64,000 bases of DNA, taken from positions 99,991 to 163,990 of the IMG/VR virus record IMGVR_UViG_3300018481_000001. One strand, written 5' to 3'. The translations under genes and the position numbers were made by a program. Below are positions 25,623-64,000 of the stretch, piece after piece; within the stretch, counting starts at the first letter, position 1, and each line of letters starts with the position of its first letter. The notes beneath the pieces were generated by a model, which had not been told where the DNA came from, made no database searches, and saw only the letters and a list, made by a program, of their open reading frames with translations. This DNA comes from a virus.

Positions 25623-26609
25623 ATGCCTGGAACTGAAGTGAACATGGTGCGCAAGACCTATCTCAGGTCTGATGCGTATACCTACGAAATTACCGTGAAC
25701 TGTGTAACGGCGGGGTCGTTGCCGGATATTTGTATTTTCCTGTTTAAAATTACGGATGAATCTGATCCTAAAGACGATGAGTTTTTGCGCGTCGTTGCCC
25801 CCGGCGACTTCACCTATGCAGCTACGCGTGATGGTGCGCTAGTACGTAAAGAAGTGTTCTGGCGAGACAGCATTGCAATATTTAATTTTGATGATCTGGA
25901 GACTGCCAATGCGGCCTGGAAAGAGCTATCTGCACGCATTAATGCTCTGGTTCAGCAAAACGATGTTTTCCTCGCGGACTTTGAAACCGTTGATGATGGA
26001 GTGGTACTTTCGTATCCTATGGTGGCGGAGACTGTTCGTGATTCCCTCATCCAAAAATACGATGAGGCCAATAATTCCTTGTCGAACGCCATTTCCGCTC
26101 GCGATACAAAAATCACAAGTTGTTCCGGACACGATGTTGCGATTGCGGCGGCGCAAGCGCGCATTGATGCCGCCGACGAAGACCTAAAAAATTACCTCAC
26201 CACCCAGGCCGCGCTGACGGGTCTTCAGGCTACATACGTCAGCCTGGTAGCACTCTTGGTGGCAGGTAATTCTCAGTTGTCGGGGCTCAATAGCTCTTCC
26301 GATGCGACCGATGAACAAAAAGCAGGCTTAAGCACCCAGCTTCTGTCGGACAGGACAAATTTGACGCTGCTTGGCACCCAGAACGCCGCCTTTGGCAGCC
26401 TAGTAACAGGCAGCGTGGCAGGCGCCATTGCAGCGCTCCAGACGCGTCTGGCGACGCTCCAACAAGAGAAAAACAACCTCGTGTCGGAGCTCAACTTGTG
26501 CACGCAGGACATCGCGCGGCTCGAGGCCCAGGTTACTGTGGCCGAAGAAGTCCGCGATGATGCGCTCGAGAGCGTGTTGGCCGTGTGCCCTGATTTTGAG
26601 GCCGCTTGA
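25623..26609 (+). CDS. Hypothetical (probably virion) protein with C-terminal coiled coil
   Basis: 328 aa; AAGGA SD; long heptad-like C-terminal half. Confidence 0.7.
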   Translation: MPGTEVNMVRKTYLRSDAYTYEITVNCVTAGSLPDICIFLFKITDESDPKDDEFLRVVAPGDFTYAATRDGALVRKEVFWRDSIAIFNFDDLETANAAWKELSARINALVQQNDVFLADFETVDDGVVLSYPMVAETVRDSLIQKYDEANNSLSNAISARDTKITSCSGHDVAIAAAQARIDAADEDLKNYLTTQAALTGLQATYVSLVALLVAGNSQLSGLNSSSDATDEQKAGLSTQLLSDRTNLTLLGTQNAAFGSLVTGSVAGAIAALQTRLATLQQEKNNLVSELNLCTQDIARLEAQVTVAEEVRDDALESVLAVCPDFEAA

Positions 26610-27246: not shown

Positions 27247-28692
27247 TTAGTCTTTGGCGAGAGCCCAACCGACATACGGGTCACTGTTTTCGCTCGGGTC
27301 GGTAAGCATTTGTTCTACGTCAGCGAGTTGGCCCGGCCAGAGCAATCGAAATAGCTCTGCCTGGGGATCGCGCCAGCGATACCGTATGGCTGTGTGCCAG
27401 CGATTATTGTGCTGAACCAGCATGCTGACACCGTCACGATCATGTGAAATGATCCAGGGTTCTCCTTTTCCAAATTGGTAAAAGCCGTATCTACGATTAA
27501 ACGAAGCTGCGAATACCGCATGCGCAATTGAGAGCGAAAGGTCCATTTCAGTCGCCACTAATTGATGTGACGGCGGAAGTTTGGGTACTGCAGCACGCAG
27601 TGCAGCGTAACTATTAAAGGTGACGCGTCTGCCAAGGTTACCTTTGGCAGCCGCTACGGCATATTTTAGATTTGTGGTATATCCTTCGACAAAGAATCCT
27701 GCGAGTCGCGCAGCAATGTTACGTGAACCATTGCCCAACAACGTCGTGGCGCACTCCTTTCCCGCGTGCGTCATGAGATAAACCATCTCTGCTTTGGAAA
27801 ACCCTTCGGACCCTTCTGAAAAGGGTGTGGCACCGTAATACCAGTTTTGAAGGGCTTTCTCTACGTCGCTTTCAACTGCGTGTTTGATGCAGCGGTCAAT
27901 GCTCCCGCAATCGAGAACACTGTATTCGTTGCCGCGCTTAAAAACGCACTGCGCGCACTCTGCTTTTCGGAAGTTGTTTTTGACAACAATACTTTTCCCG
28001 CGATCTCGGAACTCTTTTTCACGCTCAGGAATGAGCGCAAAATCGTAGTTGTCCCATGGACGCAAGGATTCCACAAACGCTGCATCGACCATATACAAAC
28101 CTGGTTTGTAGTCGTAGCCCGCGATGTTTTTGTAGCGCTGTACTTGGTGTGCGGCAGTTTCGACGGGTGAAAAGTCTGCCAGGTCCATTTCTGGCATGGT
28201 TCGAAAGAGCGTAGATGTAAGGCACGTGCCGTCTTTGATGCGTGGGCACGGACAATGGCCGGTGCTGCGTTCTAACTGCAGGCAGCTGTCATACATCGAG
28301 TCATAATCGACCGCTTCGACGTTCGTGGCAGGGTCACGAATATTTGCAATAAGCCAACCTTTCGGCTGAGTTTTGCTAATCCATTCATACCCTTCGTCAT
28401 TAGAAATGCCCTTAACAATAGCAATGGGTTTAACAATACTCTGGGTATTGAACGACGCCATGACCGTATTGTCATCGATTCGGATTGCCCATACCGAGCG
28501 AGCATCGTCGTAAAGACCAGAAAGAACCCACATGGCACGATGTACGCTCTCGAACGCCGTGAGACCTTCGGTGTTGTGAAACAAATACCCAGTGCCCGCA
28601 TCACGGTAGACGTAATTAAACTCTTTATTGCGGGTGCTCTGACGGCTCTGAACCGACGGCGTCGCTATGCACTGTGTGTAGTATTTCGCCAT
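27247..28692 (-). CDS. Uncharacterised Cys-rich protein downstream of the RT
   Basis: 481 aa; clusters CLQLERSTGHCPCPRIKDGTC and CAQC-x12-C-x5-C; start overlaps the RT 3' end by 68 nt. Confidence 0.75.
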   Translation of the reverse strand: MAKYYTQCIATPSVQSRQSTRNKEFNYVYRDAGTGYLFHNTEGLTAFESVHRAMWVLSGLYDDARSVWAIRIDDNTVMASFNTQSIVKPIAIVKGISNDEGYEWISKTQPKGWLIANIRDPATNVEAVDYDSMYDSCLQLERSTGHCPCPRIKDGTCLTSTLFRTMPEMDLADFSPVETAAHQVQRYKNIAGYDYKPGLYMVDAAFVESLRPWDNYDFALIPEREKEFRDRGKSIVVKNNFRKAECAQCVFKRGNEYSVLDCGSIDRCIKHAVESDVEKALQNWYYGATPFSEGSEGFSKAEMVYLMTHAGKECATTLLGNGSRNIAARLAGFFVEGYTTNLKYAVAAAKGNLGRRVTFNSYAALRAAVPKLPPSHQLVATEMDLSLSIAHAVFAASFNRRYGFYQFGKGEPWIISHDRDGVSMLVQHNNRWHTAIRYRWRDPQAELFRLLWPGQLADVEQMLTDPSENSDPYVGWALAKD

Positions 28693-29701
28693 GACATAAA
28701 TCCAGTTGTTTTCTTAAATTTAATGCTTTGTCAGGGTTAATCATTTGATAATAGGCAATCATGCCCTCAATTTGGGAACGCAGTAGCGCTCCCGAGGCCA
28801 CGCCCATTTGTGTAGCTACATGATCAAATCCCTGATACCGGCACTGATGTATACGAGCGCGGAGCGCGCGATATTGAAGACGCATCACATTCGGCTTTTC
28901 GTTGATCGTCATGCCCAACAAACGTTGCTGGGTATTGGATCGCCCTACCCGCAGTTTGCGCCGATTTACTCGGTAGCCCGCTGCGTGAATAATGTGTGTG
29001 ACTTCATGAATAAACTCACTGACCTTTTTTCGATCATACAAAGTATTCGAGGAAAATGCCAGGTCATCAGCATAGCGGGTGTAAGACATATCCCATGCCA
29101 GGCACAATTCGAGTATTCGTTTATCGATTCGGTTGTGAGCTACCCAGTTACAAATAGCTCCACTGGTTGGAGCACCTTGCGGTACGACATACCTTTTCCC
29201 CCTTTCTGTAAAGATAGGAACCGTTGCTAGGTCAGAAATGGCACTTGCTACTTCGTAGCAAAAACCAAACTCGTCTTGCAACATGCAGCGCACCCAAGAA
29301 CGGCGCGTGCTTGGGAAGAATTCTTTGAGGTCAAGAACGATGAGTACCTTTTTGCCGCTGTGCTGCTCGGCACTGAACCGCGTCGTACGCTCGGGCACGT
29401 ACGCAGTGATGTGTTTCGGATATTCAATATTAGTAAAAAAGCGTTTGAGCAGCCGCGTCTGCACAAATTTTAGCCGTTTACTTGGTGCATGAATAATCCG
29501 TGTACCGCCCGATTTCTTTTTAATCCGAAATTCTTGATACAATGCTGCACGGTCTACAATAACACCCATGAGCGTGCGATTACGTACCCCCATGTGGTGT
29601 GCGAGCGTCATCGTATCAATGCACCACGGAACGCCAGCGGGCGTTTGAGAGAAATCAAGGGAGTCGATAATCGTTATTGTCGTCTTGTTGTACGCTGGCA
29701 T
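28625..29701 (-). CDS. Retron-clade reverse transcriptase
   Basis: YQEFRIKKKSGGTRIIHAP, LDLKEFFPS, PQGAPTS, YTRYADDLAFS (YADD at 29063-29074), GYRVNRRK; AAGGA SD before ATG 29701. Confidence 0.9.
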   Translation of the reverse strand: MPAYNKTTITIIDSLDFSQTPAGVPWCIDTMTLAHHMGVRNRTLMGVIVDRAALYQEFRIKKKSGGTRIIHAPSKRLKFVQTRLLKRFFTNIEYPKHITAYVPERTTRFSAEQHSGKKVLIVLDLKEFFPSTRRSWVRCMLQDEFGFCYEVASAISDLATVPIFTERGKRYVVPQGAPTSGAICNWVAHNRIDKRILELCLAWDMSYTRYADDLAFSSNTLYDRKKVSEFIHEVTHIIHAAGYRVNRRKLRVGRSNTQQRLLGMTINEKPNVMRLQYRALRARIHQCRYQGFDHVATQMGVASGALLRSQIEGMIAYYQMINPDKALNLRKQLDLCHGEILHTVHSDAVGSEPSEHPQ

Positions 29702-30302
29702 CACTGTCCTTAATGTCGGCGAAATTGAGACTGCGATAGCAAATCTCATCGCCGGGAGTGCACTCTCCTTGCAGTTGCAAAAGCATGCGCGGACATATCA
29801 TGCAAATGGGTGCAATTTTATTTTGCGGCGCAGGTAGTGGCGTCGCTAAATAAGCAAATTCATCGTAAGCAGTGACTATGGGACTCGTCATTGCTTTCTT
29901 TCTGGCTCTTTCCCATTTTTTAGACGTCAAATAACGTGGACGGACAGCATGCCGCGCCTTGGTTGTTAAAACAGGGATTACAGCCAAACGCTGGGTTAGG
30001 TCATGTTCTTTGACGAACGCTTCCCACCAACTTTTGGCAGTTACGACATCCACGCCGCTAGGTTTCTTGAGGTCTACGTCTTTGCGTTTATGATGCCGCA
30101 AATGAATGACTTCAGGCACTAGCGTGCACAGGAGGTCCAACATGACTTTGCGCAAAGGCAAAACCATGGCGTACTGAAAAATATTTCCAATAAACTCGGC
30201 GTCTGCCTTATGAACAAGGTAGAGTTTATCGAATGGAAATACTTTACCAACTTTGGAGCGTTGAATATGAATATCAATGATATTATATTTCATCATCCGC
30301 AT
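29655..30302 (-). CDS. Uncharacterised protein upstream of the RT with C-terminal Cys cluster
   Basis: 215 aa; CMIC-x10-C-x6-C; overlaps both neighbours. Confidence 0.7.
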   Translation of the reverse strand: MRMMKYNIIDIHIQRSKVGKVFPFDKLYLVHKADAEFIGNIFQYAMVLPLRKVMLDLLCTLVPEVIHLRHHKRKDVDLKKPSGVDVVTAKSWWEAFVKEHDLTQRLAVIPVLTTKARHAVRPRYLTSKKWERARKKAMTSPIVTAYDEFAYLATPLPAPQNKIAPICMICPRMLLQLQGECTPGDEICYRSLNFADIKDSDASVQQDDNNDYRLP

Positions 30303-31995
30303 CTTCGAGTTGGTAGTTCTTCATTTTGATCGTGATGTGTCCAGCTTCTTTCATAACCACGCGGCTATTGGGCGTAAGTAACCAAACGGTGGGAATGGGC
30401 AATTTGGTCGAGGGCGGCGGGGCATACCCATCCGTGCAATACACCAGAATATCGGGGGCATCGTCTTGTTTGCGGCACATCTCAAGAACGTGTTTGAACC
30501 CCGGTTCGAAGTCTGTGCCACCCCGGCCAGTGAGTTCCCAATCGAGCTCATCGTTGGCGTTAACCCAGTATTCTTTGCTGACGCCCGTATCAATGTAAAT
30601 GACACAAATACGCACGTCAGAATCAGATTTCTGAATATGCTGGAGTTCCGACAAACCCTCGCGCAATTCTTGGGTGCCCATCGATCCCGAAGTATCCAAC
30701 AAATACACAATTGTGAATTTGTTGCTGTGTTTGATACCCGGAAACACAGGCATTTGCCGCACGTGGGCATAACGCCGAAATCGCTGGTCATCGTCTTCTT
30801 CGGCTTTGGCAGCGTAGACCTTGAGAGCTGCCAATTTTTTAGAGGGTCGCGACATGCCACGAGATTTCTTCGTTTGCCGTGTGCGCTGCACAATATCGTG
30901 CAAAAACGTCGTCCAGTGCACCGTGGGTGGCATGAGCATATTGCGGATAAGCTCTATTAAATAACCCGGTAATGTACCGCGTGATTTGTAGGTCGAGAGC
31001 GTCTCTTTAATAAGCTGCCTGGCGTGCTCCATGAGCTTGTGAACTTCTCCCTCGTCGCCGGGCGTCTGGTCCCAACCTAGATGGGGTGCGGAAGCATGCG
31101 TAAGCATTTTGACGAGGTTTTTCTCGAGCTCATCCATGGGATCGCCCGAGCCTCCGCTATGCTGCTCTTTTTCTTCTCCCTTTTCTCGTGATTTACCTTT
31201 TCCCTGCCCCTGGCCGGAACCGGTTTTGTCAGACGGTTGGCTGCCTTCGCCATCACCATCGCCACCCCCGCCGCCTTCATTCTCGGATTCTTCGTCCCCG
31301 CCGCCCTCGCCTTCTTCTCCGGGCTCGCCTTTTCCAGGTGACTTTTGTCCCTTTCCACCCTGCCCCTCGAGCGCTTTTTTGACAGCATCCTGCTGTCCCT
31401 TGAGTGCTTCACAAACTGCCTTTTCAACACGCTTGGCCATGTCTTTGGAGCGACTCTTAAAGAGCGCTAACAACATGGCTTGATAGTCCTCGTAGGACAT
31501 ATCGTTAGGCAGCGGCGGATTGAACCCTTCGGGAATTACCCAATAGCCAAGCGGTTCTTTGGGGTCTTTTATCTTGGGCCACGCCTTACACAACATTTCA
31601 TTGGCCGCGAGATCCACCGCCAAGTTGTTGGTCATGTCGATGATTTTTTTATCTTCCTCGAGTTCTGCAATTTTCCGCTTTTGAATATATCGCGGAATGT
31701 GCTCGAGAATGAGGTGCAGCACTTCATGTTCGCAGGTGGCGCAAATTTCATCGAAACTAACGCGTGCTGCAAACAGCGGGTCGTAGATGAAAATATACTT
31801 TCCGCGATGCACCGAAACACCCATCGTCCCAAGGCCTGGAACCATGATGCGATCCATCAGGTTGATGACGCGGGCATAGAAGTTTTGGATTTTGACGCTG
31901 GTCAGATACGTCAGCGCATCGGCCACGCTGTCGCGGCCTCGAGCAATCGCCTCTTCCGTACTTTCTGAAGAGACTTTGGGTGCACCTGTTCGCAT
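30283..31995 (-). CDS. Metallopeptidase-like/VWA protein (DUF2201 type)
   Basis: HEVLH (HExxH), acidic Gly-rich linker, MIDAS-like LLDTSGSM, GRGGTDF, YCTDGY. Confidence 0.85.
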   Translation of the reverse strand: MRTGAPKVSSESTEEAIARGRDSVADALTYLTSVKIQNFYARVINLMDRIMVPGLGTMGVSVHRGKYIFIYDPLFAARVSFDEICATCEHEVLHLILEHIPRYIQKRKIAELEEDKKIIDMTNNLAVDLAANEMLCKAWPKIKDPKEPLGYWVIPEGFNPPLPNDMSYEDYQAMLLALFKSRSKDMAKRVEKAVCEALKGQQDAVKKALEGQGGKGQKSPGKGEPGEEGEGGGDEESENEGGGGGDGDGEGSQPSDKTGSGQGQGKGKSREKGEEKEQHSGGSGDPMDELEKNLVKMLTHASAPHLGWDQTPGDEGEVHKLMEHARQLIKETLSTYKSRGTLPGYLIELIRNMLMPPTVHWTTFLHDIVQRTRQTKKSRGMSRPSKKLAALKVYAAKAEEDDDQRFRRYAHVRQMPVFPGIKHSNKFTIVYLLDTSGSMGTQELREGLSELQHIQKSDSDVRICVIYIDTGVSKEYWVNANDELDWELTGRGGTDFEPGFKHVLEMCRKQDDAPDILVYCTDGYAPPPSTKLPIPTVWLLTPNSRVVMKEAGHITIKMKNYQLEDADDEI

Positions 31996-33934: not shown

Positions 33935-34212
33935 TCCTTGATCCTTTGGCGTATTTTCAGCGCAACTGTTCGGATATCCAGAACGAGCTTGGCGCTGTTG
34001 TCATTGATGACTTTAACCATATCGCGCTCGAATTCATTGACCAAGCGCTCACAAGCAATTTGCACCGCCATGCCACAATGGCGCGCAATGTCAGTGGCTA
34101 TGCCCGTTACAGCTTCGGGATCTGGCTCTTCCTCCGATGCACTCAAGTAATTGCAAATGGATTCAGCGAGTTCTTCATCCGCAGGCGTCGGCACATAGAC
34201 TTCTTTGCTCAT
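33931..34212 (-). CDS. Hypothetical protein
   Basis: 93 aa; ATGA coupling to the AAA gene. Confidence 0.6.
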   Translation of the reverse strand: MSKEVYVPTPADEELAESICNYLSASEEEPDPEAVTGIATDIARHCGMAVQIACERLVNEFERDMVKVINDNSAKLVLDIRTVALKIRQRIKE

Positions 34213-35471
34213 TGCTTCTCGAGGCTCTCTTTGTAGGCCTTCTGCGCTTCCTGCATATACTTCATTTTCTCTTTGTATGCAGGATGGCCCGCCAGCGCGG
34301 TCGATAGTTTGTTGAGGTAAGTTCTTCCAGACTCGCCCTTGTTACGACTTTCTTCGCCCAGATACTGAGCAGCAAAAGCCATTACGAGTTCGTTTGGAAT
34401 GTCTCCCAAGTAGAGTGCCAAGCCAGGTGCGCATTTCCTGGGATCAGGCATGGCACTAAATAGCTCAATGGCAATGCCACGATTGAGCTCGTTGATAACG
34501 CTTGCGCTGTTCCGTTGGTCAGTTTTCTGGACAAACCGCAGCGTGGTCGCATCGACGGTGCAGCCGAGAAGACTTGCTACTTTGCGTCGCGTCTCGGATT
34601 TTGTCGTATACCCATCGAGGATTTCCGAAGGCTGAATCAACGAGTTTTGATCAGCAACGAAACGCATGAACTTATCAGCTGCAATATTGCCAATTTGCCC
34701 CTCGACGAGCGTACGCACTGCGCTATCCGTGAGCTCAAGACGCGCTAGGCTCGCAGCGTTGAGAATGCTCGAGACCTTTTCCCAGTTGCTCGGGCAGGGA
34801 AATGCTTTGCCGGCATCACGCGCTCCCTTGTCGTAGAGATAGGTGCTCGAGGCCTTGATAAATGCGGGGACCAACGGATGAAAATCCGCTGTTTTTGTGT
34901 ATTCAATCCAGGCTTGCAAGTCGTGCACGCAATACACAAAATTCAGGCGTTTGCGTACCGCGTGGTCTTTTTCTGCCTCATTGACCAAATACGAACCGTC
35001 AGAGGGATTCATGGCTGCAACGACCAACACGTTGTCATGCAGCATGAAATTGTGAATACGGCGTTCGTCGGTCAACGTGAAGAGCGCATTGACCATGGCC
35101 TTGTCGCCACGGTTCCACTCATCTAGGAACAAGACGGCACAGCCTCGCTTGGCTGCCTCTTCATTGAGCTCCACGAGCCAGCGCGGGGGTACAAAGTCGA
35201 ACGTATCGCCTTTCTCGGTGAACATAATCATCGAGACTTCTTCTTGCGTCATGTGACCGAAATTGAGCGGTCGCATGAAGCCTTTTCGCTTGGCGCACCA
35301 CTGGTGCACCACGGGCGTTTTGCCGATGCCGGTCTCTCCGACCAGGCACATTGTGAGTTTGGGCTTCACATGCCAGAGCAAGTCGAGCAGCTGCGGGATT
35401 TGGCCCATGCCCGTGGGGCCGATGCCAAGCTTCTCCCACGTATCGACAACTTCTTTTTTGTCCGTAGCCAT
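34209..35471 (-). CDS. MoxR-like AAA+ ATPase
   Basis: Walker A GETGIGKT, Walker B LFLDEWNRG, AAMNP sensor, RKRL arginine finger; usual partner of DUF2201/VWA proteins. Confidence 0.85.
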   Translation of the reverse strand: MATDKKEVVDTWEKLGIGPTGMGQIPQLLDLLWHVKPKLTMCLVGETGIGKTPVVHQWCAKRKGFMRPLNFGHMTQEEVSMIMFTEKGDTFDFVPPRWLVELNEEAAKRGCAVLFLDEWNRGDKAMVNALFTLTDERRIHNFMLHDNVLVVAAMNPSDGSYLVNEAEKDHAVRKRLNFVYCVHDLQAWIEYTKTADFHPLVPAFIKASSTYLYDKGARDAGKAFPCPSNWEKVSSILNAASLARLELTDSAVRTLVEGQIGNIAADKFMRFVADQNSLIQPSEILDGYTTKSETRRKVASLLGCTVDATTLRFVQKTDQRNSASVINELNRGIAIELFSAMPDPRKCAPGLALYLGDIPNELVMAFAAQYLGEESRNKGESGRTYLNKLSTALAGHPAYKEKMKYMQEAQKAYKESLEKQ

Positions 35472-37383: not shown

Positions 37384-37923
37384 TCATTTAATATAGGTTA
37401 ATTCTGTTCCACCATAGCGCTCTTCGTGCGTGTGCAACGGTTTGGGTAAAGTCACACTAAACTTACCCATTCTTGATTGTAGAATAAAACCAGCATACGC
37501 CAACAAAAGCGGCTCTGATGGTGCTTGAATAGTGTGAATTGCTTGAGGTAATAACAAAAGCAAAGGTTGCCCATGAAAAATAGGGCGCAACACCAGTTGC
37601 TGGTCTTGATGTACCACTACGCAGGGGTTGGCTAACGTGCGCCCCCCTTCGGCACTGCGCTGTGGGTACTCCAGCCCCAGTAACGGACCATCGGCTGTCC
37701 CGTAGAGCCATATTGGGTAGGATGTGTCGTCTTCCTCGAGCATCGCATCCATGACCGTCGTGGTCTGTACGAAGTGCTCCGTAGGTTTCCAATCGATCTG
37801 GGGCTCGGTTACCATTACCCAATCAGACACGTTATGGATGACAACGTGATATCGAAAATGCAGACCGTATTTTTCGAATTTGCGGGTGCGGTAAAAAGGC
37901 TCACGCAGCTTCGAAGGCGGCAT
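37384..37923 (-). CDS. Hypothetical protein
   Basis: From track ORF 37384..37947; start uncertain. Confidence 0.55.
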   Translation of the reverse strand: MPPSKLREPFYRTRKFEKYGLHFRYHVVIHNVSDWVMVTEPQIDWKPTEHFVQTTTVMDAMLEEDDTSYPIWLYGTADGPLLGLEYPQRSAEGGRTLANPCVVVHQDQQLVLRPIFHGQPLLLLLPQAIHTIQAPSEPLLLAYAGFILQSRMGKFSVTLPKPLHTHEERYGGTELTYIK

Positions 37924-40900
37924 TCCTGAGTTCGGTGAGGAGCTCATTTTCTTCCACTACACCTTCTTGCGCGAGCTCCAACGGGTACTTGGCCAAGTAC
38001 TTATCAATGGACTGGCACTCCCCGTAATTTAGCCCAACCTCGACGTCCGCCTCAAAAGGTACCGGGAGCCACTGATATTTCTCACGGACACGATCTACCG
38101 CGTAGTGTTTGACGAAGTCGCTAAGCTGCATAATTCTCTTCTTCGGAAATTGAAATACAATGGAATCGTGTACCGTCATCAACATGCGGCCACCAAAATC
38201 CGCACGAAGCGGCTCTTCCATTTCAATCAATTGCCCCAGAACGATATCTGAGCTCGTAGATTGGATTTTAAAGTTGCGCGCTTGACGGTGCGCTCTACCC
38301 CGCATCCGGGAAATACCCGACAACGGAAACCGGCGACGGCGACCAAACTTGGTTTCGACAAACTGAAAACGGTCTACCTCGCGCTCGACTTCTTCAGCAT
38401 AACGCTTAATGTCAGGGAACATTTGGTAAAGCATTTCGATAAGTGCGGTGGCGCGCTCAGCTGAAATACCGATAGTCTCAGCAATTTTATCTGGGCCTGC
38501 GCCATAAAGAATTCCAAATACAACACGCTTGATTTGGCTGCGCTCCATGTCAAGGAGTTTGCGAAGATTAACGTCGGGCACAACTTCGGGATTGAATCGG
38601 TTTTCGTAAACCGAATACTCCCGACGAAAGACCTTGGACGCGAAAAAGCTGTGCATGTCCATGCCATCATTGAGGGCCTGAATAAGCGCTTTGTCCTTGG
38701 CGTAGGCCGTGAAAACACGAACCTCGGCGCCCTTGTAATCGACGTTGACGAAAATGTAGCTATCGTCGTCGGGGATAAAGAGCTTCTTGAGATTCCAACC
38801 GGCCAAAAACTTGGGCAGGTTCTGGACATTCATATCTGAACTCGAGAGTCGCCCGGTACCTGTTCCATTGAGATGAAACTGGGTGTGCAGAAAGCCGTCG
38901 CGTCGACTCAGCGCACGGATATTTGCCAAAAATGTATTTCGCGCCTTGCTAGCTTTTCGGTATTTGAGCAAACGCTCGACAAACAGCGCTTCACGTACCG
39001 GGTGCTCTTTGGCTTCGTCATCGTACGCAACAAACGTACGAAGGAGTTTTTCTGACGTGCTTGGCTGTCCCTTGGCTGTGAACCCTGGGATGGTATAGGG
39101 CTCCATGCGCGTGCCGTCGGGGTGCTTCCAGCCCCAGTTGTAGAGCACGTTGCCGAGGGTCGCCGCGCCGTTTAGGTTCATGGGCTTGCCGCTCGGCGTC
39201 ATCGAGCCAGACATCTCGTAAATCTCGTGTTCGGTCTGTGCGATGACTTTACTCAGCGCGTCCTCGAGCACGTCGATGTAGGGCTGATCAATACGGGTAC
39301 CATAATACTCCATGCGACCCAACACCCGCGAAGCAGGAATTGCATGAGTTTTCATGAGACCCGTAACGTTCGATTTTTCAGCAACAATCCGCCGCTTTTG
39401 CAGGCCCGCGAGTTGTCGTGTTACATCAGCGTCCACGGCCCCATAAATTTGGAGCTCATGAATAGGGATATTTTCGAACCCGGCGTCTTTACTGATTTGT
39501 TGCTCTTTTTTAGAGCGAGGATCTTTAGGTTTTTTAGGCTCTACTAGCCGTGCCGGTTTGGCAGGCTTCTGAAACCACTTCGTAGGCTTCTTGGGCTTAT
39601 TGCGGGCACCTTTTTGGTAATCCGCAACCGCAAGCGCCCAGACTGAAACGAGACCTGCTAAATGGCTCTTACAGAACAAGTAATCGTCGAGCTCCAAGTC
39701 ATAGCGTCGATTACTATTCTTGAATGCCTCTTCCTCGGATTCATATTTTTCCAACTCCACCTTATATTCGTGGAGTGACTTTAAAAACTCTGGATGTTCT
39801 TCTTCGAGAATAGGCGTGAGCGATTCAATCTCTTTTTGCGCCTCATCACTCTTAGAAATGTCCTCGGAACTCTCGAGCAGGTCGTAGAGTTTATCTTCAT
39901 AACCACAATATTCCGGCAACAGGTTCGCAGTGAGAACCTTCAAGCCGTAATTGCCTTTTTTATCTTCATCCAGAAGATGCTCGCCAAGAAGGGTATCCCA
40001 TACGACCGATGTGACGGGCGTGTCATACCGAAGTTCAATAAACTTTAAGTCGAACTTGGCATTGTGGAATATCTTTGGTTTTTTACTCTGGAGGATTTTT
40101 TTAATCCATACCCAAAGTTCAGGCAGCCGCGCCAGATACTCTTCCCCTGCAAAGGGATGCTCGTAGAGAATAGTGGCTGCTTTACGCCGGCCCCAACCAA
40201 AACAAAAGGCAATAATCTTCGACGTCGGCAAGTGCGAGTGGAGCGACGTGGTCTCTGTATCGACGCTCAGCGGCCAAAGCTCAAGCGGCAGCGGGTCTTC
40301 TGTAAAATCGAGAATACTTTTGCAGACCGCAATCGCGTCTTCGATGGTTTTGGGCGTTGCATAGTTCTCTGAGATTTGCTCTAGAGAAGGTCGGACCAAA
40401 TGCGCCTCGAGTGCGCGGTCGAAAATATTATGAAGGTTGAGTTTAAATGTCTCGAATACGCCGGGTGCCGCAATAAGTGCCTTTTCCGAAAATGACACGA
40501 AGATCGGCATCTCATACAAAAAATGCTTGAGGAACTTGTGCTGCACCTCGGAAAACATTTGCCGAAACCCGAGCTGCTTGAGCGCCTGCGCGCCCATGGC
40601 AACAATGACCGTGGGTTTCATACGCTGAATAGTGCTGTGCAGGTGGGGGTTACACTGCTTGAGCGAGACCTTATCCGGAGGGGTATTGTCCGGAGAAGCG
40701 CACTGCACCGCGTACGTAAATGCGAGGTTGAGGCCCCGGTAATTTGCGTTGCTTTGGGTGAGGTGGTGAATAGCCGTTTGGACAATACGCCCGCCATGAC
40801 CGCCGAACGCGTAGTTTTTGCTCGCGGACATGTCATCGGGTTGGTCGCCAACAAACAGCACGTGCACTTTTCCCTGTGTGGGAGTGACGCCACAACGAGG

Positions 40901-40957
40901 CAGGTCAAAACGCGGGCAGCCTTCGCACAACTGCCCTTTGGGTATGGCGAAGGTCAT
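37901..40957 (-). CDS. polA: Family A DNA polymerase with N-terminal UDG-like domain and 3'-5' exonuclease
   Basis: Exo motifs VDTET, FHNAKFD, YGAVDA; pol motif A DYKGAEVR, B RSQIKRVVFGILYG, C VHDS; N-terminal CEGC...LFVGDQP...VQC...KQC. Confidence 0.93.
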   Translation of the reverse strand: MTFAIPKGQLCEGCPRFDLPRCGVTPTQGKVHVLFVGDQPDDMSASKNYAFGGHGGRIVQTAIHHLTQSNANYRGLNLAFTYAVQCASPDNTPPDKVSLKQCNPHLHSTIQRMKPTVIVAMGAQALKQLGFRQMFSEVQHKFLKHFLYEMPIFVSFSEKALIAAPGVFETFKLNLHNIFDRALEAHLVRPSLEQISENYATPKTIEDAIAVCKSILDFTEDPLPLELWPLSVDTETTSLHSHLPTSKIIAFCFGWGRRKAATILYEHPFAGEEYLARLPELWVWIKKILQSKKPKIFHNAKFDLKFIELRYDTPVTSVVWDTLLGEHLLDEDKKGNYGLKVLTANLLPEYCGYEDKLYDLLESSEDISKSDEAQKEIESLTPILEEEHPEFLKSLHEYKVELEKYESEEEAFKNSNRRYDLELDDYLFCKSHLAGLVSVWALAVADYQKGARNKPKKPTKWFQKPAKPARLVEPKKPKDPRSKKEQQISKDAGFENIPIHELQIYGAVDADVTRQLAGLQKRRIVAEKSNVTGLMKTHAIPASRVLGRMEYYGTRIDQPYIDVLEDALSKVIAQTEHEIYEMSGSMTPSGKPMNLNGAATLGNVLYNWGWKHPDGTRMEPYTIPGFTAKGQPSTSEKLLRTFVAYDDEAKEHPVREALFVERLLKYRKASKARNTFLANIRALSRRDGFLHTQFHLNGTGTGRLSSSDMNVQNLPKFLAGWNLKKLFIPDDDSYIFVNVDYKGAEVRVFTAYAKDKALIQALNDGMDMHSFFASKVFRREYSVYENRFNPEVVPDVNLRKLLDMERSQIKRVVFGILYGAGPDKIAETIGISAERATALIEMLYQMFPDIKRYAEEVEREVDRFQFVETKFGRRRRFPLSGISRMRGRAHRQARNFKIQSTSSDIVLGQLIEMEEPLRADFGGRMLMTVHDSIVFQFPKKRIMQLSDFVKHYAVDRVREKYQWLPVPFEADVEVGLNYGECQSIDKYLAKYPLELAQEGVVEENELLTELRNAAFEAA

Positions 40958-60498: not shown

Positions 60499-63400
60499 AT
60501 GTCCGACCCCGTCACGCCTGTACTCCAATACCTCGACGACAGCCGTGGGCAGATCTACAAAAAGACTTTGGAAGGTCTCCAGGGTCTTTTTCCTATTTTA
60601 GGTAAAAACACCACCCTCGAGCTCAAAGACCTCAAGGTCAAACAAAAAGAATATTCGTCCAATGACGAAAAGGCTGCCTTGCTCAGCGGCCGAACGTTGC
60701 ATGAGCCTGTTCAAGGCATGCTCACGCTGCGCGACAACAAAACAGGAAAGGTGCTCGACACCCAGCAACACACGCTGCTGCATCTACCCTACTACACGCC
60801 GCGTCGTAGCTTTATTGTGGGCGGGAACGAGTACAACATTCCCGCGCAGCTTCGACTCAAGCCCGGCGTATATACGCGCGAACGCAACAACGGTGAGTTT
60901 GAAGCGGCATTCAATCTAAGCAAGGGCCGCAATTTTCAAATTTCCATGGAGCCCGAATCCGGAAAGCTCCACATGGAATTTGAGAATTCCAAAATACCTC
61001 TATATACGGTCCTGCGTTCTTTGGGCGTACAGGACGTCGAAATTAAAAAGTTCTGGGGCGCCGGACTTCAAGAGCTCAATGCCAAAGCTTCTCGCGAAAA
61101 AGAAGAAGCAGTATTGGCCAAGCTGATTGGCAAAATCAAGCGCACCAGCGAATCGATTCCCAACTCGCTCGAGGGGAAACGTAAATACGTACATGATTAT
61201 TTTGCAGCTACACGTATGAGCGGCAAAGTTACGCAGCGTACCCTTGGCACGCATTACGATTCGGTCAGTCCTGAATCCTTGTTGGTCGCAGCCAAGAAAC
61301 TCATCGACGTGCAAAAAGGCCATGCGCACGGAGACGACCGCGACAGTCTAGAATTTAAGACGGTGCATTCCGTTGATGATTTTTTTAAAGAGCGCCTCGA
61401 AAAAGACGCAAAGCGCACCATTGTTCGAAAGCTCGGTTTGCGTATGAATTACGCAGATAATCCTGTCATAAAAGAAATCGTGCCGAGTTCTTGCTTTACG
61501 AAGAGCATCAACGGTTTTGTGGTGCAGTCTGCGTTATCCAATCCACCGACTCAAATTAATCCGGTTGAGATTGTAGACCAGACGATGAAAATCACGTCGC
61601 TCGGAGAAGGCGGCATCAGTAGTACACGCGCCGTTACCAACGAGTCTCGCAAGGTTCACAACACACACCTTGGGATCATCGACCCCGTGCGCACGCCTGA
61701 CGGGGCCAAGGCGGGCATCGACGTGCGTCTGACTATGGCAGCCCATCGTGATGCTGCGGGTAACCTCTACGCCTATGCACGGGACGCCCGCACCGGCAAA
61801 ATGACCCATGTCGAAGCAACGCAGCTGGCCAAGAGTCACATCGCGTTCCCAGGTCAAGATGGACGCTCCCACTGGGATGTAATTCATGGAACCGAAGTCA
61901 TCTCGGTTCCCAAAGCCAAGGTTGATTACATCATCCCCAACCCGGCGTTCATGTTTACGCCGACAACAGCGCTAGTTCCTTTTATTAATGGAATGCAGGG
62001 AAATCGCGCCATCATGGGTGCGAAATTTCAAACGCAAGCGCTGCCGTTGGTTGAGCGCGAAGCGCCTTATATCCAAGCCGGTGCACCTCGAGCTGGCCAA
62101 AGCATGGAAAAAGAAATCGCACGATTAGTGCTTCCTACAGCGCCTGTCGATGGGACTGTTGAAAAAATTGACGACGATTATATTTACATTCGCCCGCATG
62201 CCAAAACAGCCGCAGCCAAAAGCGATCTTATTAAATTGCGCTACGACACCTATTTTCCTTTGGCATCCAAGACCTATTTGCACAATGACGTGCATGTCAA
62301 GGTAGGTGACAGTGTCAAAAAAGATCAAACCCTTGCCGAAAGCAATGCAACCCAAGGGGGTGTACTGGCACTCGGTAAAAATATGTCCATCGCCTACATG
62401 GCGTATTACGGGAAGAATTCCAATGATGCCGTGGTCATCAGCGAAGGCGCTGCCAAAAAACTAACCTCTGAGCACATGTACAAAGAAACATTGCTCAAAG
62501 ACGCAGAAACAGTGTTGGGTAAACATAAATATGGAATTTATTACGGCATGCGTTTTACGGCGATGCAGCTGGCCAAGTTAGACGAAAACGGCATTGCCAA
62601 AAAAGGCGCCAAACTTGATTTCGGAGACCCTGTTATTTTAGGTCTTAGAAAATCAGCACCCACGCCCGAAATGCAACTCTTGGGCAATTTCAACAAATCT
62701 CTAGTCAAACCTTACCGAGACGTTGCCGTAACGTGGGATCGGCCCAGCATTGGTTTTGTGCAAGACGTCACCAACGCTGCTCGACAAGTTATGGTCACAA
62801 TTCGTACGCAAGAACCTATGCGTATTGGCGACAAACTTGCCAATCGGTTTGGCGGCAAGGGCGTGGTGTCCGAAATTATTCCCGATGACCGCATGATTCA
62901 AGACGAGCGTAAAAAGCCCGTCGATATTTTGTTTACATCAGCGGGTGTCGTAAGTCGCATCAACCCAGCACAAATTGTCGAAGCAGCCCTTGGAAAAGTC
63001 GTAGAAAAAACAGGCAAGCCTATTATCATCCCGCAATTTCAAGCAGGGGATAACGTACAGTTTGCAAAAAACCTATTAAAAGAACACGGCCTCAAAGACA
63101 AAGAAACCGTACACGATCCAGTTTCTGGTCGTGATATTCACAACATCTTTGTGGGTCGATCTTATATTCACAAATTATTTAAGTCGACAGATACAAATTA
63201 TTCAGCACGCGGCGTAACCAACTACGACGCCAACATGCAACCTGTCCGTGGTGGTGACGAAGGTGCCAAGGGCCTAGGCAAAATGGAAATGAATGCCCTC
63301 TTGGCACACAACGCACGCAACGTGCTCAAAGAAGGTCTAACAATCAAGGGTGAACGTAGCGATGCCTTCTGGCGTGCCTTTGAATATGGGCTTCCCACAC

Positions 63401-64000
63401 CCCATGCTAAAAATCCATTTGTTTCTGATAAATTCGTTGCCATGTTGCAGGGCGCCGGAATTAACGTAAATAAAAATGGTTCCATGGTGTCACTCGCACC
63501 AATGACAGATCATGACATAACGCGCATGTCGTCAGGTGCCATTGGTACGCCGAGCCTTGAAAAATCAAAGAGCTTTATGCTCAACGCAAAAAATATGCAG
63601 CCTGAATCAGGCGGGTTATTTGACGCGAATCTTACAGGAGGTCTAAGCGGCACACGCTGGGCGCACATGGAATTGCCCGAGCCGGTGGTAAATCCTGTTT
63701 TCGAAGATCCCGTTCGTCGATTGCTTGGCTTTACCAAAAAAGAATTGCGCGAAGAGACTGGTAGAGTAGGTGGGCAAGCAATTCGCGAAAAACTCAATGC
63801 GCTCAAGCTAGATACTTTAGAAAAAGAACTGTATCAAAAAACAAAAACTGCGCGCGGTGTCGAGCTTGACAATGTTGTCAAACAGCTCAAAGCACTGCGT
63901 GCATTAAAGTCCGGCGGGTTCAGTAAAGCTGGAGATGCTTATACCCTTAGCCGCCTTCCTATCGTACCGCCCATTATGCGCCCTATCCTACCCTCACAGC
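60499..64000 (+). CDS. rpoBC: Multisubunit RNA polymerase beta-beta' fusion, partial (runs off right edge)
   Basis: Open frame from ATG 60499 to the window end. Beta motifs: DPVRTPDG, NRAIMGA, GDKLANRFGGKGVV (62827), GLGKMEMNAL. No stop before beta'-like PESGGLFD, WAHMELPEPV, LPIVPPIMRP. Confidence 0.9.
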   Translation, partial: MSDPVTPVLQYLDDSRGQIYKKTLEGLQGLFPILGKNTTLELKDLKVKQKEYSSNDEKAALLSGRTLHEPVQGMLTLRDNKTGKVLDTQQHTLLHLPYYTPRRSFIVGGNEYNIPAQLRLKPGVYTRERNNGEFEAAFNLSKGRNFQISMEPESGKLHMEFENSKIPLYTVLRSLGVQDVEIKKFWGAGLQELNAKASREKEEAVLAKLIGKIKRTSESIPNSLEGKRKYVHDYFAATRMSGKVTQRTLGTHYDSVSPESLLVAAKKLIDVQKGHAHGDDRDSLEFKTVHSVDDFFKERLEKDAKRTIVRKLGLRMNYADNPVIKEIVPSSCFTKSINGFVVQSALSNPPTQINPVEIVDQTMKITSLGEGGISSTRAVTNESRKVHNTHLGIIDPVRTPDGAKAGIDVRLTMAAHRDAAGNLYAYARDARTGKMTHVEATQLAKSHIAFPGQDGRSHWDVIHGTEVISVPKAKVDYIIPNPAFMFTPTTALVPFINGMQGNRAIMGAKFQTQALPLVEREAPYIQAGAPRAGQSMEKEIARLVLPTAPVDGTVEKIDDDYIYIRPHAKTAAAKSDLIKLRYDTYFPLASKTYLHNDVHVKVGDSVKKDQTLAESNATQGGVLALGKNMSIAYMAYYGKNSNDAVVISEGAAKKLTSEHMYKETLLKDAETVLGKHKYGIYYGMRFTAMQLAKLDENGIAKKGAKLDFGDPVILGLRKSAPTPEMQLLGNFNKSLVKPYRDVAVTWDRPSIGFVQDVTNAARQVMVTIRTQEPMRIGDKLANRFGGKGVVSEIIPDDRMIQDERKKPVDILFTSAGVVSRINPAQIVEAALGKVVEKTGKPIIIPQFQAGDNVQFAKNLLKEHGLKDKETVHDPVSGRDIHNIFVGRSYIHKLFKSTDTNYSARGVTNYDANMQPVRGGDEGAKGLGKMEMNALLAHNARNVLKEGLTIKGERSDAFWRAFEYGLPTPHAKNPFVSDKFVAMLQGAGINVNKNGSMVSLAPMTDHDITRMSSGAIGTPSLEKSKSFMLNAKNMQPESGGLFDANLTGGLSGTRWAHMELPEPVVNPVFEDPVRRLLGFTKKELREETGRVGGQAIREKLNALKLDTLEKELYQKTKTARGVELDNVVKQLKALRALKSGGFSKAGDAYTLSRLPIVPPIMRPILPSQ

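Follow-up and report, generated by a model that had tools for sequence, protein, structure and literature searches.

The stretch of DNA analysed here (the window) comprises 64,000 nucleotides of the IMG/VR virus record IMGVR_UViG_3300018481_000001 and carries on its minus strand an operon of four genes, in which a reverse transcriptase (RT) of the retron clade is accompanied by a protein with DUF2201 and VWA domains (the VWA protein) and by two proteins, named X and Y in this work, which belong to no known family. The record is a single-contig virus of 179,934 bp, and because its ends share a 123-bp overlap it assembles as a circle; it has no telomere-like ends. Further genes of this virus encode a large terminase, a PolA-type polymerase, a primase and a MoxR-like ATPase. 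All coordinates are those of the window unless stated otherwise, and relatives are denoted by the labels of their loci or contigs (L001 and so on) or, for one relative genome, by G001.

The operon starts with the DUF2201/VWA gene (30283-31995, minus strand, 570 aa), followed on the same strand by X (29655-30302, 215 aa), the RT gene (28625-29701, 358 aa) and Y (27247-28692, 481 aa). The longest open reading frame (ORF) of the RT covers 28625-29749 and has 374 aa; the alignment with relatives places the start at Met17 (position 29701), with the Shine-Dalgarno motif AAGGA 8 nt upstream. With this start the RT gene overlaps X by 47 nt and Y by 68 nt. The VWA gene and X overlap by 20 nt, and the four ORFs follow one another without any non-coding gap. 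A preliminary description of this DNA had reported the two overlaps of the RT gene and its location in the operon behind the DUF2201/VWA gene, and both are borne out by the ORF map and the aligned start; the three-gene module which it proposed must be enlarged, since the unit consists of four genes, VWA-X-RT-Y, and is core in the whole phage lineage. The long overlaps themselves are not conserved, the genes of L001 and L002 merely abutting. In the public gene calls X starts at Met4 (212 aa) and Y at Met54 (428 aa). The longer N-termini of both proteins are kept in relatives, that of Y reading MxxYY..C..TPS; given this conservation, the public call is probably too short at least for Y.

More than 25 distinct contigs, 150-190 kb long and with RTs as little as about 31% identical to this one, have the order VWA-X-RT-Y. 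It is kept in every such contig with enough flanking sequence, one sub-group having about 1 kb of extra ORFs between the VWA gene and X. X and Y are co-conserved with the RT in every relative examined, and the VWA gene lies immediately upstream of X in nearly all of them. About 70 protein clusters are 50% or more identical to this RT, and more distant tiers extend down to about 31%, often on contigs 150-190 kb in length. No close RT was present in 185,579 prokaryote species genomes taken at one per species (best match 34%), the best match among GenBank phages was 30%, and neither X nor Y had any match in 50,697 GenBank phages; a metagenome scan yielded mostly bacterial retrons. The RT clade is thus confined to large uncultured phage contigs. 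The genomes of the lineage measure about 170-190 kb. When terminases are compared, the cultured phages that come closest, with about 30% identity, are Salmonella phage Arash and some Vibrio phages, D181 for instance. As the gene order remains constant over this range of RT divergence, comparative sequence evidence indicates that the operon is a vertically inherited core element of an uncultured phage lineage, not a mobile island. Our literature searches found no description of such an operon.

The reverse transcriptase

The analysis of the RT sequence demonstrates an intact YADD motif (29063-29074, minus strand, as for all motifs given here), together with SAEQH in the retron region X (29360-29374, residues 126-130 of the 374-aa frame), PQGAPTSG (29159-29182) and RLLGMTIN in the retron region Y (28901-28924). 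Among 43 members of the clade these four motifs show little or no variation. The retron signatures NAxxH of region X and VTG of region Y are therefore not matched, these positions reading SAEQH and LLG; the 358-aa enzyme with its intact YADD and altered SAEQH, PTSG and LLG can be read directly as first described. By motif reading the RT is catalytically intact.

The only Pfam family recognised in the protein is RVT_1 (2.6e-18). The best PADLOC families are RT_XIII (240.9 bits), RT-Protease_XI (213.7) and RT_III-A (209.7), the 25 best RT matches being all retron RT families, and the 14 sequence matches in the PDB are without exception retron RTs, the best one being that of Ec67. Since all matches in both databases are retron RTs, the enzyme is assigned to the retron clade, in agreement with the preliminary description of a phage-encoded, retron-clade RT. 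Families of defence-associated reverse transcriptases (DRT) or Abi enzymes are absent from the 25 best PADLOC matches of any of seven clade members, and no family of diversity-generating retroelements (DGR) competes with the retron families for this RT. Among six further clade members submitted to PADLOC, five had RT_XIII as best match, at 157-231 bits.

In order to place the RT, a tree was built from 149 non-redundant RT domains of the fetched loci, after merging rows more than 95% identical and removing those which covered fewer than 180 profile positions. All 27 module-bearing RTs, joined by one short metagenome contig, form a single clade with a support of 99 in the Shimodaira-Hasegawa-like approximate likelihood-ratio test (SH-aLRT), apart from a bacterial clade of 70 rows which contains the type XIII member. 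The nearest outgroups (L026, L031, L047 and L032) are all viral contigs; the RTs of L026 and L047 are 430-461 aa long and are not accompanied by X, Y or the VWA gene. The phylogeny, proposed earlier as a check on the system, thus sets this RT within the retron clade and outside every described type.

The closest described type deserves a detailed comparison. Type XIII retrons correspond to clade 10 of Mestre et al. 2020, which includes Mx162, Mx65, Ne144 and Sa163, and have as partners a DEDE/winged-helix/SWIM (CxCx12CxH) protein and a HEAT/ARM protein (PMC7736814). The phage system resembles them in having RT_XIII as the best PADLOC family for the window RT and for five of the six other clade members, in its multi-gene organisation, in a zinc-finger-bearing partner and in its signs of vertical inheritance. 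However, the phage RTs reach only 157-241 bits on RT_XIII, whereas a true type XIII RT (L108, from a Planctomycetota metagenome-assembled genome) reaches 428 bits over fewer residues, and in the tree the phage RTs form a separate, well-supported clade. Furthermore, X and Y have no PADLOC match at E values up to 0.1, Y presents a C-x9-CxC-x7-C arrangement with no histidine and no conserved acidic residues in place of the SWIM pattern, no upstream non-coding RNA is found here, and the carrier is a phage. By sequence, the closest solved structure is the Retron-Eco2/Ec67 RT of type I-C (PDB 9lm3 and 9i2f; E 4.6e-22), whose alignment spans RT residues 70-350 and includes the thumb. Ec67, in contrast, has a fused Toprim effector, a VTG region Y and an adjacent msr-msd, and nothing in Ec67 aligns with the first 70 residues of the phage enzyme, to which X binds in the model described below. 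Viral RTs in IMG/VR were surveyed in 2024, and the monophyletic viral clusters RTC3 and RTC5 were reported to share ancestry with bacterial retron RTs (PMC13681634). The clade studied here probably belongs among these clusters; the survey gives no description of partner genes, of an operon, of an RNA or of a restriction to a lineage (PMC13681634).

The partner proteins

Protein X was aligned with 32 relatives, among which Pro23, Tyr28, Pro110 and Gly179 are invariant together with a C-terminal Cys4 site formed by Cys167, Cys170, Cys181 and Cys188. No sequence match was found in Pfam, PADLOC, PHROG or the PDB. The AlphaFold2 (AF2) model of X is of good quality, with a predicted local distance difference test (pLDDT) value of 88 and a predicted template-modelling score (pTM) of 0.85, and its fold had no Foldseek match, no match at Z 2 among 48,161 solved chains and no cluster in the AlphaFold Database (AFDB). 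Protein Y, in an alignment of 21 members, retains besides the start methionine only eight invariant cysteines, arranged in two clusters: Cys137, Cys147, Cys149 and Cys157 (C-x9-C-x-C-x7-C), and Cys246, Cys249, Cys262 and Cys268 (C-x2-C-x12-C-x5-C). It also lacks any sequence match in Pfam, PADLOC, PHROG or the PDB; its AF2 model has a pLDDT of 79.5, with no PDB fold match (best Z 3.4) and a single uncharacterised AFDB cluster matched at E 3.6e-5. Both proteins are thus without known family or fold, as the preliminary description had anticipated in calling them novel partners. Y is the fastest-evolving gene of the operon, being 26-39% identical where the RT is 58-63% identical. A profile search with Y gathered 329 clusters at 50% identity, all of 400-560 aa, and a distant member of the family resides in the same operon.

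The complex of X with the RT was predicted with a score of 0.79, the best of three controls scoring 0.01. A score at this level was obtained for 58 of 80 solved complexes and for 2 of 110 mismatched pairs, counts which are only approximate for X-RT because own alignments were used. The model runs have at least 83% of their contacts in common, with a partner pLDDT of at least 74. In the modelled interface, strands of X pair with a strand from the N-terminal extension that the RT carries (residues 4-40, numbered on the 358-aa protein); X also contacts RT residues 142-153 and not the region around YADD. The extension is specific to the clade and lies outside the part which aligns to solved retron RTs. 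X is therefore predicted, from the model, to bind the N-terminal extension of the RT.

The VWA protein contains PF13203 (DUF2201_N, 2.5e-13) and PF09967 (DUF2201, 2.1e-15), with an HExxH motif (HEVLH, residues 90-94) in addition to a DxSxS motif resembling a metal-ion-dependent adhesion site (MIDAS) within LLDTSGSM. The linker between the HExxH and VWA domains (residues ~200-290, at 31126-31398) is a low-complexity segment rich in Gly, Glu, Lys and Ser; its length is highly variable, and the proteins of the relatives range from 476 to 666 aa. The MoxR-like AAA+ ATPase is encoded at 34209-35471 on the minus strand (ATPase family phrog_1297, 4.9e-47); it is set apart from the operon by two small ORFs on the minus strand and then by two genes on the plus strand. 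L004, L006, L118, L119, L120 and L121 have a gene for an AAA_5 ATPase at the corresponding location, and in most relatives it is found 2-4 kb upstream of the operon. MoxR AAA+ and VWA proteins form known pairs, such as RavA-ViaA, CbbQ-CbbO and NorQ-NorD. The phage genes have the corresponding set of features, an AAA_5/MoxR ATPase near a VWA protein with a MIDAS-like motif; unlike those pairs, the VWA protein carries an additional HExxH domain (DUF2201_N) and heads an RT operon. The MoxR-like ATPase is likely the partner of the VWA protein.

Predicted RNA structure in the relatives and in this genome

In one sub-clade (L004, L005, L015, L118, L119, L121 and L202), whose RTs are about 40-47% identical to that of the window, the RT stop codon is followed by a GC-rich non-coding stretch and then by a long AT-tipped hairpin. 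This hairpin-rich insert between RT and Y measures 250-500 nt and is spanned in L004 only, where 271 nt fold at -119 kcal/mol (z -3.6); the predicted structure has two GC-rich hairpins, a further hairpin about 125 nt long and a closing stem. Four inserts of the sub-clade aligned too poorly for a covariance model. At least six metagenome contigs, independent of one another and 2.5-53 kb long, break off within the stretch, 34-296 nt past the RT stop (L005:2355-2497, L015:7003-7298, L118:7018-7093, L119:7018-7051, L121:6913-7066 and L202:5066-5210), and further contig ends past the RT stop are found at L001:9036-9150 and L205:1-86. Long inverted repeats break assemblies; the hotspot could mark such a repeat, a hypervariable site or multicopy DNA.

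The breaks of several assemblies just past the RT, together with the fast divergence of Y, could be explained if the operon were a DGR mutating Y. We consider this extremely improbable, as neither the window nor L004 yielded a template/variable repeat pair (at least 20 nt, within 7 kb) or a direct repeat longer than 28 nt in the operon region, the affinity of the RT is with retrons and not with the DGR clade, and the breaks coincide with the hairpin-rich non-coding insert.

The outgroups L026 and L047 present structured gaps directly upstream of the RT, at L026:5070-5310, with a 20-bp hairpin, and at L047:5390-5680, with z values of -5.5 and -6.2, respectively, against mononucleotide shuffles. 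Structured RNA upstream of the RT is the ordinary layout of retrons, and these gaps look like ordinary msr-msd candidates. The L004 insert and the upstream gaps of the outgroups make a retron-style RNA plausible for the wider group; in the sub-clade of the window it may have been lost, moved or replaced. The absence of a recognisable msr-msd, claimed in the preliminary description, consequently holds for the surroundings of the RT in this genome and does not extend to the whole clade.

In the window no Rfam family was found at the gathering score, and three structured gaps gave none at E values up to 1; scans for tRNA and tmRNA were negative in both the window and the whole genome. An msr-msd flanked by inverted repeats and adjoining the RT was not found, and the template may possibly lie elsewhere in the genome. 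The most structured intergenic gap is located at genome positions 94514-94745 (L115:615-846), outside the window and 34 kb from the RT; its folding energy has a z value of -6.3 for the minus strand against mononucleotide shuffles and of -3.4 for the plus strand against dinucleotide shuffles, and the fold includes several GC-rich hairpins and an AT-rich one of 20 bp, together with a closing stem. We rejected it as the template because the region is not conserved, lying in a block without detectable orthologues in G001, because a T run comes after the AT hairpin, as in a terminator, and because a comparable hairpin of G001 sits between convergent genes. Structured stretches found after Y in relatives were likewise discarded, since they lie inside a convergent gene. 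In the window this gene (25623-26609, plus strand) encodes 328 aa, and it adjoins the operon in all relatives (for instance L009:7610-8593 and L014:8611-9600); its 3' coding part folds strongly in several of them (z -4 to -7 in 180-nt windows) and not in the window copy.

Proposed function of the operon

We propose that the operon encodes a retron-derived RT complex, now fixed by vertical inheritance in the phage, which copies a phage RNA for the benefit of the phage; we regard the chances of this proposal as evenly balanced. RT, X and Y would be made together through coupled translation, and X would act as a clamp on the N-terminal extension which is specific to the RTs of this clade. Y, with its two putative Cys4 metal sites and its rapid evolution, may represent a third subunit or the output or targeting part, and the HExxH-VWA protein and the nearby MoxR ATPase may assemble, remodel or activate the complex. 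The RT would most likely make a small DNA from a phage RNA template in retron style, the gene for this RNA not adjoining it in this genome. The complementary DNA (cDNA) would then serve the infection cycle of the phage, in host takeover, counter-defence or replication, and not host immunity. We infer cDNA synthesis, the role of the MoxR/VWA pair and the benefit to the phage from the features described above.

Several observations weigh against this proposal, most of them concerning the RNA. There is no non-coding gap beside the RT of the window that could house an msr-msd. Comparison of the whole genome by blastn with two complete relatives gave 82 matches, none of them at least 40% non-coding, and an all-against-all search of 81 intergenic gaps returned one 17-nt match and no repeated element. 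A template embedded in the coding sequence, as suggested in the preliminary description, finds no support from the synonymous-site or folding scans: synonymous identity at the codon level is flat at 0.35-0.40 along VWA, X, RT and Y, with no excess except in the gene overlaps, where few sites were counted, and sliding-window folding of the operon in six relatives revealed no structural outlier shared within the genes, the sole weak shared signal being in the first 180 nt of the RT (mean z -2.8 versus a general bias of about -1.2). Region Y, which binds the msr in known retrons, reads LLG and not VTG throughout the clade, so that RNA recognition may differ or be absent. Beyond the RNA, MoxR/VWA pairs are also found in phages lacking an RT, and thus their link to the RT may be one of gene position alone. 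Finally, X and Y show no conserved acidic or histidine residues hinting at a nuclease or other enzyme; as they are conserved only at cysteines among residues of catalytic type, no output activity can be named.

The failure of every search in this genome to yield a non-coding RNA would be explained by template-free or protein-primed DNA synthesis, as in AbiK and some DRT enzymes, in which X or Y would act as primer or scaffold. The altered region Y across the clade and the invariant Tyr28 of X, a protein which binds the RT in the model, are consistent with such a mechanism. However, the 25 best PADLOC families are without exception of the retron kind and include neither DRT nor Abi families, the modelled contacts of X lie away from YADD and Tyr28 is not among the confident ones, and the L004 sub-clade and the outgroups show structured RNA-like regions beside the RT. 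We thus consider protein priming quite unlikely. A related reading, which we find doubtful though worth serious attention, is that RT, X and Y form, with the HExxH-VWA protein and the MoxR ATPase, a hitherto unrecognised RT machine which is obligatory in the cycle of a virulent phage and has no dedicated retron-style RNA gene. In this machine X or Y, as new metal-binding folds, would replace the msr in positioning the primer or template, and the cDNA would be needed for infection.

The retron-clade affiliation of the RT can also be read in terms of a classical retron defence or exclusion system carried by the phage, in which the RT and its multicopy single-stranded DNA (msDNA) would restrain an effector, either Y or the VWA protein acting as a protease, until a competing phage infects the same cell and sets it free. 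Y evolves fastest (26-39% identity versus 58-63% for the RT), as arms-race genes often do, and phages and satellites are known carriers of defence systems (PMC9122126). The location of the operon is nevertheless fixed, and it co-diverges with the core genes over a deep lineage, instead of occupying a variable hotspot; neither X nor Y shows a toxin-like or nuclease-like domain or a conserved catalytic residue; the circular genomes of 170-190 kb encode their own polymerases, and the window contains no sign of lysogeny; and the adjacent non-coding RNA is missing. A defensive function is for these reasons unlikely.

The core character and vertical inheritance of the operon would suit a role in replication, the RT being an essential replication gene which makes a DNA primer from an origin transcript. 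The block which contains the operon holds the PolA polymerase, the primase and the terminase, and in relatives also RuvC and ribonucleotide reductase. Nevertheless, these genomes already possess PolA and primase, no origin-like or tandem repeat was found near the operon, and no precedent is known among retron-clade RTs, so that we assign only a slim probability to this role.

Known retron RTs serve in host immunity, and they are used as tools for genome editing. The long retention of a retron-clade RT by a whole lineage of large phages, with RT identity falling to about 31%, points to reverse transcription in the infection cycle of the phage itself, a role undescribed for retron-type enzymes. 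The operon offers a compact RT with a protein partner predicted, by modelling, on its N-terminal extension, as well as two putatively new cysteine-rich folds, and it allows a direct test of whether a retron-clade RT functions without an adjacent msr-msd.

Some features of the surrounding genes may be added. Scans for sigma-70 promoters and for terminators were uninformative here, and a phage RNA polymerase would explain the result for the promoters. The PolA-type polymerase gene is located at 37901-40957 on the minus strand; according to Pfam, its orthologue in L006 (L006:1-572) adds a domain of the uracil-DNA glycosylase (UDG) family before the exonuclease and polymerase domains. At the end of the window an open frame of more than 1167 aa (60499-63999, plus strand) extends past its edge.

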